From Eledone cirrhosa (lineage: Eukaryota): DNA of 64,000 bases. The DNA lies in assembly GCA_964016885.1 (NCBI GenBank), contig OZ024752.1:23684001-23748000 (forward strand), given 5' to 3'. The notes under the pieces were generated by a model. The model worked only from the letters and a program-made list of their open reading frames with translations. It ran no database searches and had not been told where the DNA came from. A program made the position numbers and the translations under genes. Within the stretch, counting starts at the first letter, position 1, and the number at the start of each line of letters is the position of its first letter. Positions 7,710-63,950 of the stretch are shown piece by piece.

Positions 7710-7778
7710 ATTTTATTATGCGCATTTCAAAAACAAATATCATGATGGGATGATATTTGCGTTCTCATCAGATAAAAT
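7710..7778 (-). ncRNA. Hammerhead ribozyme type I (family A)
   Basis: Minus strand: ATTTTAT CTGATGA [stem II] GAAA TGCGCA TA ATAAAAT. Confidence 0.85.
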
Positions 7779-8758
7779 AGGGAGACATGATATGAAGCTT
7801 AAAAACACTTGCGAGCAGTGAAGTGTTAAATCAACATAAATATATATATATAATTTATATATATATACATATATATAATGTTTATATATATGTATATATA
7901 TGAAATATATTTGTGGCACCTTACGATGGGTTAATCCACCATAATAATATGATCACCTTCAGCATAACTTAATTAAACTACTCTATAGTTAATACACTTT
8001 ATGCTTTAAAAATTTCTCTTGGAGGATGCGCATCACCATAGAAATTAGGGTCTATGTTGGGACACATTTTAATAGCTAGGTATAGAAACCCCAGAGTTAC
8101 CTCCCCGCATGCATTAACTCCCCTTAGCCACACACACACTTCCGGGTGGTATTCAATGGCGTTTCTCGAAACGTAACAGCCTCCTGTATTGAACTAAAGA
8201 ACACCAGACTACGATCTCTAACTGGATTGTCGTGGATTATGTGAAGGGCATATAATCGAAAAATACACTCCCCTGACCATGAAAATGCCGAAGTACATGA
8301 AATACTTGACATCCCTTCGCTGTGCATCTCCAATACTTTTAACACTTTTAATGCTTGCACTATTTTTAATGCTTATAATATTTCTCCACACACAGACTAT
8401 ATCAATCATATAAAGAATTTGCCACCAGATCTACCAACCTAACACTCTTGTTTACCTACCTAAGTGCCTCTACCACACATATCTCTCTGCCACACTATAT
8501 AAACAAGACGCACATGCGTGCCACACATATAACATTTGCACTATATAACCGCTTATCTTCATGTTGTATTTTAACCTGTATTTTTGATTTTTGATTGTAC
8601 CTCTTAATATAAATGTAATCTCGAAGTGTGTACTGCCACTCTAAATTCTGTAATGAATGTTGACCCACAATGTTTGAATATGTATCAATGTTTGAATATG
8701 TATCGGTATGTCTCTCGGCTGAAAAGGAGGTCATATAACTATCCATGCATTAATAAAT

Positions 8759-8805
8759 TGCTCCGAAGAATCCAAACCTCGGTTTGGAGGAAACAGCTGT
8801 AAGCA
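8759..8805 (+). ncRNA. Hammerhead-like motif, CCGAAGA core variant (family G)
   Basis: TGCT CCGAAGA ATCCAAAC-CTCG-GTTTGGAG GAAA CAGCTG TA AGCA. Confidence 0.7.
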
Positions 8806-9554
8806 CAATAATGTTTTGAACAGTTCTTTGATTCTTATATTTCATATAACTGCTCTGTAAATCATCTGATGTTTTTACATTGAGCTACTTAACTTACTGG
8901 TAATAAGGTAGTAATACATTACTGCCTACCACTATTTAGGGTGTGTGTAAAATACTTATAACTGCATAAGGTTTTGTATTTACATAACCATAAATAGTAT
9001 AACTAATACTATGTATATATATATATATATACAATGTGTATATATATATATATAATGTATATATATATATATAATGTATATATATATATATATATATAAT
9101 GTAGATATATAATGTGTGTATATATATAATGCATATATATATATAATGTAATGTATATATATAATATATATATAATGTATATATATATATATATATGTAT
9201 ATATATAATATATATATAATGTATATGTATATATAATGTATATATATATATAATGTATATATATATATATATATATATAATGTATATATATATATATATA
9301 TAGTATATATATATATATATATATATATATATAGTATATATATATATCGCTGCCACATGTCCTGCGTCTCCAACAGATAATGAGGGACAGAGACCGTTGG
9401 AGAGAACTCGTCCATGGATCTTGGGAATTTTACCCGCCTTATATATATATATATATATATATATATATATATATATATATATATATATATATATATATAT
9501 ATATATATATATATATATATATATATATATATATATATATATATATATATATAT

Positions 9555-9752
9555 AACGAAGGAAATGTGGTAAGGAACCAGGTGGACAATAACGCACTAA
9601 AGTACTCAATACTTAGGGTAGTAGAGTGGGTAATAGGAACAAGTAAGACCCCGACGGCTGAGCTCAAGCCGTTTCGACGGCTAATTCTGTACTGAGTACA
9701 GAATTACCCGTCGAAACGGCTTGAGCTCAGCCGTCGGGGTCTTACTTGTTCC
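9555..9752. mobile_element. Fold-back pseudo-LTR fragment (family F) with the 3' half of an HHR
   Basis: Palindrome 9634-9752 centred near 9693 contains GAAA CGGCT-TGAGCTC-AGCCG TC GGGGT. An 80-bp extension is on one arm only, and both flanks are (TA)n. Confidence 0.8.
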
Positions 9753-9890
9753 TATATATATATATATATATATATATATATATATATATATATAATGCAT
9801 CTATATATATATATAATATATATATATATATATATATATATATATATATATATATATATATATATATATATATATATATATATATATATA

Positions 9891-10025
9891 GGAACCAGTA
9901 AGACCCCGACGGCTGAGCTCAGCCGTCGGGGTCTTACAGGTTCCTATTACCCACTCTACTACCCCAAGTATTGAGTACTTTGGTGCGTTATGGTCCACCT
10001 GGTTCCTTACCACATTTCCTTCGTT
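9891..10025. mobile_element. Fold-back pseudo-LTR fragment (family F)
   Basis: Palindrome centred on CTGAGCTCAG (about 9917) plus the same one-sided extension, in (TA)n. Confidence 0.8.
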
Positions 10026-10144
10026 ATATATATATATATATATATATATATATATAATGTATATGTATATATATATATATATATATATATATATATATAT
10101 ATATATATATATATATATATATATATATATATATATATATATAT

Positions 10145-61100: not shown

Positions 61101-61890
61101 TCAATGTATGGGGTGACTTTGTTTACCTTAGCTGTTGTTTCTTTTAACTTTTTCCTGTCTACAAATCTTAGGTTCATAGGTTTCCCACTATCATTGTTCA
61201 TTTCATCTACCACTAAGTTTAGGGTATCAACTAAATTTGTCCTTGCCCGTCAGCATTCATTTCCTCAATGGCCGTATCTTTGTTCCAGGTATTATTTATT
61301 TCAGCGTTCAGATCATTGTCTGCTTCGGATGCTTCCTCCGTTCTCTCAACCTCTTCACCTTCATCTCCCACTGGCTCGTTTGCCTAGCATACTCCGCTCT
61401 TCATTTCCAATCTAATCTCTCTGCTGAGTTCCTCCAGTTCCAGCTCGCTTATCCACCATTAGTTCTTATTACCCGAGCCTGCCCGGCCAATTTTTGTTCA
61501 TCTTATTTAAATAGACCAATCTCGTTCCAGATGCTCTGCATCCGTTTCCTATAGCCTTTTTTCCTTGGGGTTACTCTTCAGGTAACATTGCATAACAGTT
61601 CTATTCAATTCTTTCGTCCAGTTGGTTCTGGTCTCTTTCCTTCTTCTTCTTCCTCCAACACCAGCAGTATTTGGATGACAGCCAGGTCCCTACTGCTGGG
61701 CCAGGGAGCACCTGCTGCGTGAGAGTCTGTCACATGACATTCCAGTCTCCACTTCACCGTTATTCGAACTGTTTAGGTTCGACATTTAAACACTCATACC
61801 GAGGATTTGTAAATGTATGGTTACATAACCACCGGTGATTTCATCACCCCCGGTAATTTTAGCGTGGCACTATCACGCTGTAGACGAACA
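58172..61890 (-). mobile_element. R4/Dong-type non-LTR retrotransposon (RT plus restriction-like endonuclease) with (TAA)n tail; ORF about 61785-58283, disrupted
   Basis: RT motifs WKSPGPDG, EQKGC, WIDYKKAFDMVPH, GIFQRDSLS, HLFFMDDLKL and YKYLG. Endonuclease motifs HIVSEC...RHD...WDF...RPDLV...DVACP. (TTA)n occupies 58172-58205. Confidence 0.9.
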
Positions 61891-62617
61891 TAAATAAATA
61901 AACAAATAAATAGGTAAAAACCCTAAAAAATAAGCATAAGTTTCATTGTAATGTAATGTTTGAATGTCTGACTTAGTTTTTTTGTTTGTTTGTTTGTTTG
62001 TTTGTTTTTCTTTTCTTTTTTCTTTTCTTTACGTTTTTCGTTGCTGCTGTGCTGTTTTGATTTTGATTTTTGATTTTTTGATGTTTTGACCGGGTCATCA
62101 AATCAGTCTATTTATATCTTTTGATGCCTTCCTGACTTAGTGGGAATACTACGATACCTCTGTCTTACCAGGAGGTAGTGGGAGAGAATAGCGGCGGTAG
62201 CGATAATGAGGCAGTGGTGGTGGTGGTGATGTGATCGTAGTACTGTAGTGATGGTGTTGAAGTTGAAGTAGAAATAGAAGTTGGAGTAACTTGGCTAGAT
62301 TTTTTGGTGTGGTAGTGGTGATGGTGGTGGTGGTGGTGTTGGTGGTGAAATTATTTGCCTGTTTGTCCACGTAGCCATTTTCCTCTTCTTTGACTATAAC
62401 ATTTCTGATCCAAAATTAAATATTAAATATTGGGGCCCTATGTCATAATGTGATGCGTTGTCACTTGCTGAGAGTTAAAACTGTAATCTTATGTTTCATT
62501 TGTAATAAGAATTATTCTATCACAGTTGTTTTAAATATGTAAAAGTCAAAAGCTTACGGGAGCGATTCCATAACGATATATCCATCATTATTATTATTAT
62601 TATTATTATATATATAT

Positions 62618-62915
62618 ATGCCACCGCGGAACGGGAAGATGGTCATGCCATCTGGCCTTTGCCGTCCCCTCGGTCAAGCCCCACCGGCTCGAGATGGGGG
62701 GGGGAATCCCGCAGCGTCCAAGCCACGCTTTGTGACCTGGTTGAGTGCAGCATGGCATGGAAGGCAACCGACACTGTGGCGACAGGAAAGCGGGTGGAGG
62801 CCAAAAGAGTCCACGGTGGATCCGCAGCGACATTGGTGTGGCTCGTAGATCCAGAGGCCGAGCCTCACGGAAACGCCGATGCGCACTTCTACTACCACGT
62901 TGCCACCCACTGCCA
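62618..62915 (-). pseudogene. CRE-like LINE zinc-knuckle/RLE fragment
   Basis: RLGL...CRCG..VD..GLH.LSC.....HAALN, then after a frameshift EPVGLDRGDG..PDGMTIFPF. Confidence 0.7.
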
Positions 62916-63120
62916 TATGGACACATATATATATATATATATATATAGATATATAGATATATATATATATGAAATAGCAATATATATATATGAATGTATA
63001 TATAGTGTATTTTGCAATACACTGTATGCTTAATTAAAAGAATTTTGAAGACCTTACGCTATTGTTTTAAAGTAGTGACAATGTCAATTATTTCTATTTT
63101 CAGCAAACAAGGGGAGATAA

Positions 63121-63163
63121 GCTGACAGAGCTCTGTTTCGTACATGTTGGTACTTATCAAAGC
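63121..63163 (-). ncRNA. Degenerate hammerhead motif
   Basis: Minus strand: GCT TTGATAA GTAC-CAACAT-GTAC GAAA CAGAGCTCTG TC AGC. Confidence 0.4.
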
Positions 63164-63519
63164 TCAGCACTCCTCCTGTCTGCTGAAAATTATGAATGTT
63201 GGATTCTTATAGAATTCCAGTAATAATCAGGAACTGATTATACAGATCGGTTGCCGGACCAGCAACAATTGAAAATTGGTGCTCTGAAATAGCGATATAT
63301 ATATGAAAACAATAGCGTACGGTCTTCAAAATGCTTATAATTATATATATGATAATATATATATATATATATATATTATAATATATATTATTTATTATAA
63401 TATATATTATATATATATATATATATATTATAATATATATTATATATATATATATTTATATATATATATATATATATATATATATATATATATATATATA
63501 TATATATATATATACATAC

Positions 63520-63950
63520 AGGCACACATATATATATGCACGTATCAGTTTACCGAACATTTATTATAATGTTCGCTTTGTTCGTTTGTAAACAAACGAG
63601 CAGCCTGATTTACGCCGTACAGTGTTCAGGCCACCACGTCACCCTTTTGTTCAACACTGACACAGGAACGATGTACTAGTTTAAAGCTTGTTAGCTATCG
63701 TCAGCACCGTATACCTTTCTGCCAGATGGTTGACCGTCCGAAAGTATATACTTTCCTTATGAAAATTAACGGCTGAGCAGCCTAATTTGCATATCGAGTG
63801 AGTTCAGTCGGCCAGGCGCACCGAAAACGATAAATGGAATAGAATGAAACGAAATTTCATTTCTCACTCTTAGTACGGTACTTACTTAAATGTAAGTATG
63901 TATGTATACGTACGTACATATATGTATAAAGACGTACAGTAGCATGTATA
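63520..63950 (-). mobile_element. Monomer of the 50953-51549 retrozyme-like family; HHR 63669-63709 (GAAA mutated to TAAA)
   Basis: Reverse-complement similarity to about 51060-51480 over one unit length. Confidence 0.75.

Follow-up and report, generated by a model that had tools for sequence, protein, structure and literature searches.

Type I hammerhead motifs in a 64-kb window of the Eledone cirrhosa genome as probable ends of Penelope-like elements and units of retrozymes

Hammerhead ribozymes (HHRs) with a palindromic helix III have been described from Penelope-like elements (PLEs; PMC4209133), and targeting of TA repeats has been described for the Hydra clade of these retroelements (PMC8557442), the supplement of which lists mollusc, cnidarian and other members together with their HHRs. 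Animal retrozymes lacking long terminal repeats (non-LTR retrozymes) are proposed to originate from the pseudo-long terminal repeats (pLTRs) of PLEs (PMC7229834; bioRxiv 10.64898/2026.07.22.740005). Minimal HHRs number ~2,000-9,000 per genome in schistosome, coelacanth and Xenopus (PMC4209133), and 126,247 HHRs were reported for the 28 Gb of axolotl, a genome ~9 times larger than the one considered here (bioRxiv 10.64898/2026.07.22.740005). In the present study, a 64-kb stretch of the 3.0-Gb genome of Eledone cirrhosa (contig OZ024752.1, positions 23684001-23748000; referred to as the window, with coordinates counted from its first letter) was analysed, in which G+C amounts to ~35% and (TA)n and (CA)n abound. 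A preliminary description, made from the letters alone, had proposed a hidden layer of HHR motifs in this window, a term that is not apt, as both the arrangement and the TA targeting had already been published (PMC4209133, PMC8557442). Judged by sequence, the motifs are very probably type I HHRs located at the 3' pLTR ends of PLEs (established for families A, C, D and GCAA, and likely for the rest), along with CTAG retrozyme units, with cleavage predicted only for dimers. The motif itself, covariation of its helices, linkage to open reading frames (ORFs) in four families, position relative to TA repeats and one-tailed inverted pairs were directly observed.

A strict type I HHR descriptor was applied to the window and to dinucleotide shuffles (100 for each of three window sizes), a comparison that had been proposed in the preliminary description, and returned 12 matches in the window and 0.01-0.03 per shuffle. 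An extended descriptor, which tolerates a single change in the core, accepts U3-A8 and lets the helix II region extend to 130 nt, yielded 25 rows at a cut-off score of >=11, representing 24 distinct motifs (50633 duplicates 50676), whereas 20 local shuffles averaged 1.0 match and gave at most 3; at a score of >=12, 22 matches were obtained in the window, compared with 0.3 in shuffles. The exact core (C3UGANGA / GAAA / UH, in type I order) was present in 20 of the 24 motifs, three of which represent the U3-A8 form, and the other four carry a single core change. Homology search and inspection added 15 half-motifs and seven whole, degenerate motifs, i.e. 63704 (-), 27763 (-), 11334 (-), 24448 (+) and the GCAA-type motifs 10290 (-), 10346 (+) and 31273 (+), bringing the whole motifs to 31, or one per ~1.8-2.3 kb. 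These numbers agree with the earlier estimate of about 30 motifs at roughly one per 2 kb; each of the eight positions then singled out (14551, 17301, 18319, 19707, 31810, 36092, 51297 and 52111) falls on a motif, the outer limits correspond to motifs at 7708-7780 and 63667-63711, and the layout proposed at 19707 is present but requires a helix II region of 92 nt. For 19442 and 19712, an alternative reading that used a closer GAAA was rejected as wrong, the true helix II region being 92 nt; loose descriptors with two core changes were indistinguishable from shuffles below a score of 9, and a candidate at 38729 (+), with a score of 8 and situated within an ORF remnant, was left out of the count.

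Rfam was shown to be nearly blind to the HHRs of the window. Among the 150 of 221 rows listed, the whole-window scan consisted mostly of microsatellite-like miRNA models and contained one hammerhead match (HH9, 18308-18378, 33.3 bits, gathering score 52), and no match to hammerhead models was found at 17250-17400 (family B) or 51140-51440 (retrozyme G2). Window repeats were mapped by masked self-BLAST, as microsatellites swamped plain repeat finding, and six mapped families were found to occupy 11.8 of the 64 kb. This 18%, a lower bound, shows the notion that much of the apparent junk between microsatellites is of this kind to be overstated; a sizeable share of that sequence is nonetheless explained as the ends of known retroelements, and the descriptor detects HHRs where Rfam fails.

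Direct HHR-ORF-HHR units were identified in the genome for four families, namely A (L065, 3.86 kb, with an 821-aa frame), C (L094, 3.68 kb), D (L071 and L072, 3.55 kb) and GCAA (L099, 4.85 kb), and within the window ORF remnants lie 5' of motifs of families A (14558, 23459), B (17308), E (40867, 50676) and GCAA (31273). Together with the tandem arrays of the CTAG family, these units bear out the initial assignment of the motifs to PLEs and non-LTR retrozymes. The ORFs of families D and A contain RVRWK plus DKT and RLRWT plus DKT, respectively, both with YRDD and a C-terminal CxxC/CxH. In a motif-by-motif comparison of A and D with the Hydra-clade definitions (PMC8557442, section 11), family A displayed the CxCX5C linker, lacked CCHH and carried CxxC and CxH near the C-terminus. 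Pfam matches to RVT_1 and GIY-YIG were obtained for the Neptune-like (GCAA) ORF only, with no reverse transcriptase (RT) or endonuclease (EN) match for the Hydra-type ORFs of A and D; these two ORFs match the Neptune-like ORF by blastp (E ~1e-8 to 1e-10), the A ORF (A only) matches GIY-YIG/RVT clusters in the Atlas, and PDB sequence searches with two PLE ORFs yielded nothing useful. The 784-aa frame of the GCAA family exhibits a DKG motif, a CX4CXXC (CX2-5CxxC) linker and, at the C-terminus, a GIY-YIG domain, and is presumably of the Neptune/Nematis type, referred to here as Neptune-like. In several copies of this element (L076, L078, L080, L082 and L084), a 455-aa frame overlaps the start of the 784-aa RT-EN frame, which may reflect a frameshift, an intron or a second ORF.

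The position of the motifs relative to TA repeats was shown to be directional. In 19 of the 24 window motifs, a repeat of (TA)5 or longer follows the predicted cut at a downstream distance of no more than 150 nt, compared with 14.3% of random positions, and only five of the 24 have one upstream; in the genome sample (38 stretches), 21 of 37 motifs have such a downstream repeat. Proximity of most motifs to (TA)n had been noted from the outset and holds, insertion of Hydra-type elements into (TA)n being suggested here by position only. The distances between cut and (TA)n are bimodal within a family, i.e. 38-54 or 121-136 nt for A, ~48-53 or 137-162 nt for C and 39-42 or 142-161 nt for D. Among inverted pairs from the window and genome loci (36 rows, of which 13 were left out: one duplicate, five retrozyme and seven without a measurable arm), 21 of the 23 scoreable pairs consist of one short and one tailed arm. 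This asymmetry corresponds to the known PLE footprint (PMC8557442) and agrees with two RT start sites observed in vitro (PMC11167929). A CUC(C)...GAG hairpin stands at the start of the tail in A, B, C, D and some further families and is absent from several others; 93% of cells in this hairpin are paired across 20 rows, a figure that is biased because the rows were picked for having the motif.

The roughly ten families distinguished in the preliminary description are not unrelated, as it had held, because 12 of the 24 motifs have one helix I (TATTTTAT/ATAAAATA) in common and can be aligned as a single lineage; in addition, identity among the ORFs of A, C and D is 40-60%, and the two CTAG units (G1 and G2) are 64.5% alike. 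In the A/B/C alignment (17 rows), 97.8% of cells are paired, compared with 34-61% in slid controls, a difference that does not amount to a p-value because the aligned rows are related. Compensatory change, which was counted for this lineage only, was observed as changes on both sides in eight of nine helix II pairs and two of four helix III pairs, while changes in helix I are one-sided. Pairing in the HHR helices looks selected. A strict search without a helix III constraint, covering the window and 39 genome stretches, returned 21 matches, all of which are self-complementary at this position (eight distinct types; 17 Watson-Crick and four with G-U), compared with a single, non-palindromic match in ten shuffles. 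The claim that a palindromic helix III is mostly kept is thereby upheld, and all seven palindromes originally named (TGCGCA, CAGCTG, CTAG, CACGTG, CAATTG, CATATG and CCGG) do occur, but the motif at 36092 has a hairpin (CCTTTGG) and no palindrome, and those at 17301 and 31810 have TATGTA, which is self-complementary via G-U only. The further claim that palindromes are family-specific did not hold: they are neither unique to a family nor fixed, because they are shared across families and vary within family F. CTAG, CCGG, CAATTG and TATATA each occur in families that differ in helix I, with CTAG common to subfamilies G1 and G2 and CCGG to H1 and H2, while a hand count of the first 100 listed of 9,482 family F matches gave CAATTG 56, CAGCTG 16, CGATTG 15 and CAGTTG 13, while A-C forms, although permitted by the pattern, were absent from it. 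Helix III palindromes change through G-U, not A-C, forms.

The CTAG family consists of ORF-less tandem arrays with units of 424-466 bp and one type I HHR each (L100, L101), comprising up to ~31 copies among the matches listed and frequently ending in an inversion. By this organization and sequence, the units are classed as non-LTR retrozymes such as those of PMC7229834 and bioRxiv 10.64898/2026.07.22.740005. In the window, G1 is represented at 17969-18654 (+) by ~1.5 units of 459 bp with a canonical HHR (18318-18364, CTAG), and G2 at 50952-51450 (+) by ~1.2 units of 428 bp (HHR 51295-51339, CTAG) and by a copy at 63549-63894 (-), the HHR of which (63667-63711) has one core change. Both subfamilies contain the octamer ATGCAAAT ~90-100 nt upstream of the HHR (at 18226, 51214 and 63785, and in L100), and it is exact in only one unit of L101. 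This octamer is possibly a small nuclear RNA-type promoter element, comparable to that of newt satellite 2, a link that a literature check did not confirm. Another retrozyme family, which has a period of 310 bp and a CGCG palindrome, was observed in L039 (7014-9804), L081 and L109, and is absent from the window.

Exact-pattern searches of the genome returned 7,720 matches for A, 3,647 for D, 40,289 for CTAG, 25,839 for U3-A8/CCGG, 54,644 for B/C and 9,482 for F, i.e. 141,621 for the six patterns and ~130,800 without the A13C form, with 0-5 matches for backwards controls. In fifty hand-picked 10-kb stretches, 66 matches were found, compared with 5.0 in shuffles; 15 of the 66 lie in two tandem arrays, and the 11 mid-chromosome stretches contain nine matches in all. 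The window is ~3 times denser than the genome sample, and the genome as a whole is roughly estimated to hold 1-4 x 10^5 HHR motifs.

Repeated insertion of 5'-truncated copies into (TA)n is the likely source of the window motifs. Following published work on PLEs, the GIY-YIG endonuclease would nick (TA)n, and reverse transcription of read-through RNA would begin at either of two fixed points, ~40-55 or 130-160 nt past the ribozyme cut, and would mostly halt early or invert, leaving HHR-bearing stubs. Most copies would retain only the ribozyme end because reverse transcription usually stops early or inverts. Within a transcript of the pLTR-ORF-pLTR or tandem-unit type, two same-sense HHRs would swap strands, with their palindromes pairing as a stable helix III. 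Single or inverted copies have no same-sense partner in cis, so that most copies in the window probably represent fossils. Predicted self-cofolds were more stable than two monomers for all 26 motifs. Several points weigh against this interpretation. Only 13 of the 26 cofolds had an entirely intermolecular palindrome, and several motifs fold as monomers no better than shuffles. Minimal HHRs of this kind have low in vitro activity (PMC4209133), one of nine Xenopus dimers was cleaved (bioRxiv 10.64898/2026.07.22.740005), and the anole PLE HHR requires protein and is dispensable for insertion in vitro (PMC11167929). The p-values of the TA association are too small because neither inverted arms nor related copies represent independent observations. 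The clade calls are based on motifs, by which families A and D appear to be Hydra-clade PLEs, and the D copy L071 has CxxC and CxH without the CxCX5C linker. No full-length element could be assigned to families B, E, F, H1, H2, I, J or K (for F, H2, I, J and K no search was made), the PLE link of B and E consists of nearby ORF remnants, and H1 has no ORF of its own at two loci (L097 and L098).

The explanation that the motifs match by chance, or arise as by-products of palindromic, AT-rich DNA of low complexity, has practically no probability left. Shuffles do equal the window at a score of >=5 (95 against 83 matches), and a few genome-sample matches in T/A-rich DNA seem spurious (e.g. L029), but the excess over shuffles at a score of >=12, the near-empty backwards controls beside thousands of matches and the helix covariation of the A/B/C lineage mean that for the high-scoring set this explanation is already refuted. 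A different proposal, raised in the preliminary description, is that palindromes were selected as barcodes that block dimers between families. In most of the 14 window families compared, the predicted helix III self-duplexes are indeed far stronger than the cross-duplexes, A has a helix III unlike that of B and C despite a shared helix I, and a literature search for Penelope HHR palindromes and heterodimers found no prior paper. Conversely, one palindrome occurs in several families, full cross-compatibility is predicted between B and C, the four helix III versions of family F coexist among its 100 listed matches, and compensatory drift under a need for self-pairing accounts for the pattern. 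According to PMC6765202, dimerization is considered to take place in cis, from one tandem copy to another, a setting in which no barcode would be required. Partner selectivity is predicted to need helix I and helix III jointly and could plausibly be a by-product; selection for barcodes is considered very unlikely.

A possibility that we regard as doubtful, yet worth weighing, accepts the same origin and holds that selection acts on RNA pairing or on recognition of the fold by protein, with catalysis dispensable in some families. The GCAA family is central to this question, as it carries U3-A8 together with C at core position 13 in 10,804 of 10,948 matches (another base in 144), while helix II and the CCGG palindrome are kept. 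Lacking A13 and, with 3-4 bp, a helix I that closes the core, it falls outside the hammerhead definition, and in the predicted structure a local hairpin sequesters its 5' core. The family is young, with many open 784-aa frames that are 98.9-100% identical among the seven loci compared. Natural A13C was not found in the literature searched, including the available portion of PMC4209133, and Lunse et al. 2016, on dimeric PLE HHR variants, may already report A13 variants. Family F similarly has U4C in 91 of its first 100 listed matches, HHR mutants left PLE insertion in vitro unaffected (PMC11167929), and Naiads lack canonical HHRs (PMC8557442). On the other side, the exact core is kept in most families across diverged lineages while the helices covary, including through the switch from C3-G8 to U3-A8, a core variant known from PLEs (PMC4209133); U4C is viable in a viroid (PMC3088659), and the fixed A13C could be mere recent decay, the simplest reading of the GCAA motif being that of a vestigial ribozyme in a successful element. 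A combined proposal, in which the PLE HHR is kept as a module for RNA dimerization or protein recognition that need not be catalytic, the tail hairpin marks the RT start and helices I and III form a family code, is unlikely. It is put forward because the young, expanding A13C family of ~10,800 copies kept helix II and the palindrome, and because helix III stays compatible with pairing; if true, the code would operate within a set of 100,000-400,000 motifs, a ribozyme load that ranks with the densest on record for an animal. Why PLEs keep hammerheads, i.e. for cleavage or for pairing, is a question for which this genome offers natural comparisons, with young families of intact core beside sisters with fixed U4C or A13C, palindromes caught in G-U intermediates and many long intact ORFs.

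In the window, families A to E were found at the following locations. Family A (TGCGCA) comprises a short-arm HHR at 7708-7780 (-), with (TA)n 43 nt past the predicted cut; an inverted pair at 18768-19176, with HHRs at 18796-18868 (-, short arm) and 18984-19056 (+, tailed arm); and two elements. The first (13346-14650) is 5'-truncated and consists of an inverted tailed arm without the 5' core (13346-13525), a C-terminal ORF remnant (13518-13571), a 3' untranslated region (UTR) and an HHR (14549-14621, +), while the second (19989-23550) has an inverted arm with an HHR (20096-20168, -), a broken Hydra-type ORF (20920-22455, +), a 3' UTR and an HHR with one core change (23449-23523, +). Family B (TATGTA) is present at 10821-10889 (-) and at 17299-17367 (+), the latter 2 kb past a Hydra-type endonuclease remnant (15041-15334), and family C at 31808-31874 (-; TATGTA, tailed arm), 34837-34902 (-; TATATATA), 35814-35876 (+; TATATA, one core change) and 57616-57678 (+; TATATA, one core change, tailed arm). 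Family D (CACGTG, with the 92-nt helix II region) forms an inverted pair at 19297-19958, with HHRs at 19322-19452 (-) and 19702-19832 (+, tailed). Family E (CAATTG) is represented by a decayed motif at 27637-27766 (-), by an HHR at 40861-40973 with an 82-nt helix II region that follows a decayed Hydra-type ORF (37892-40239; whole feature 37892-40973, +), and by an HHR at 50668-50781 (+), 1 kb past a Hydra-type RT remnant (48823-49625). A further decayed, near full-length Hydra-type ORF lies at 53993-56129 (-), with an inverted 319-nt copy at 56626-56944 (+); no HHR could be assigned to it.

Among the remaining families, F (CAGCTG, U4C core variant) is located at 8758-8806 (+), with a decayed relative at 11291-11339 (-); H2 (U3-A8 core, CCGG, weak helix I) at 12368-12417 (-); H1 (U3-A8 core, CCGG) at 52313-52352 (+); J, with hairpin helix III, at 36091-36159 (-), with 3' remnants at 10551-10674; and K (U3-A8 core, 10-nt palindrome CAGAGCTCTG) at 63117-63167 (-). 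Neptune-like sequences are present as an inverted pair of pLTR ends (10152-10543), each with the U3-A8 and A13C (GCAA) motif (10290, -; 10346, +), and as a 5'-truncated PLE at 27883-31466 (+), with RT and GIY-YIG at 27895-30143 and a terminal GCAA-type motif with one extra core change (31273-31302). A decayed minimal HHR with a CG helix III has lost helix I (24440-24480, +). A U3-A8 family with a long helix III, the whole motif of which is present in genome stretch L051, is represented by an inverted pair of 3' half-motifs at 9623-9762 and further halves at 9881-9957, 23565-23712 and 48245-48289. The palindromic insertions at 9623-9762 and 23565-23712 show inversion within the helix II loop, producing two back-to-back 3' half-ribozymes, an event that the hairpin may favour. 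In family I (CATATG; 52110-52204, +, with related half-motifs at 52571-52607, 52719-52761 and 52886-52946), the 3' side of helix II is complementary to the motif's own CUGAGGA core and reads CUGACGA on the opposite strand, possibly allowing an alternative fold that blocks the core.

Other elements were also observed in the window. A broken Helitron-like element at 42534-47768 (+), with Pfam matches to Helitron_like_N and PIF1, contains an in-frame 69-bp tandem repeat of 24 copies (42699-44365), and a second broken Helitron-like element at 209-1724 (-) likewise has a 69-bp repeat (1138-1475). A broken non-LTR retrotransposon with RVT_1 is located at 58283-61249 (-), the C-terminal region of which resembles a restriction-like endonuclease. 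In addition, a DDE_1 transposase fragment (26049-26774, -), a local duplication block with a 543-bp period and 99% identity (4115-5997) and five copies of a ~300-bp interspersed repeat in which no HHR was found (6061-6359, 25115-25474, 53050-53383, 56167-56629 and 57941-58169) were identified.

Compared with described systems, and as far as sequence can indicate, the window represents a known arrangement at unusually high density, with new families of Hydra-clade PLEs, Neptune-like PLEs and retrozymes; less ordinary are the density itself, the change of palindromes by way of G-U, the hairpin shared by the long tails and the fixed A13C family. With the Hydra-clade PLEs of Craig et al. 2021 (PMC8557442), the elements share the C-terminal endonuclease, RW(K), DKT, CxxC/CxH and, in family A, CxCX5C, as well as a canonical HHR near the 3' end, apparent insertion into (TA)n and inverted, 5'-truncated, one-tailed copies. 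They differ in their units of 3.5-3.9 kb (mostly <3 kb in that paper), their tails of ~90-115 nt (30-40 bp published for PLEs), helix II regions of up to 92 nt and an even-palindrome helix III in place of the 1-3 nt loop of most listed Hydra HHRs; the HHRs listed in the available part of that source, compared by eye, match none of the window families.

The minimal PLE HHRs described by Cervera and De la Pena 2014 (PMC4209133) are similarly of type I and located in pLTRs, with many families per genome, mostly as single or opposite-strand copies 100-700 bp apart, and include the U3-A8 variant, a palindromic helix III and proposed dimers. The counts of that study contrast with no fewer than 130,000 exact-pattern matches found here outside the A13C family by a different search method. 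The GCAA element resembles PLEs of the Neptune/Nematis type and the anole Poseidon element PAc (PMC11167929) in its RT, C-terminal GIY-YIG and Zn-finger-like linker, and, as in PAc, two end points define a tail and targets are AT-rich; A13C, the 3-4 bp helix I and the extra overlapping 455-aa upstream frame set it apart. Finally, the CTAG units share with animal non-LTR retrozymes (PMC7229834; bioRxiv 10.64898/2026.07.22.740005) a non-coding tandem unit of a few hundred bp with one canonical type I HHR and a short palindromic helix III, while the CTAG arrays, known here from DNA, differ from those published in ending in PLE-like inversions and in carrying the octamer ~100 nt upstream of the HHR.

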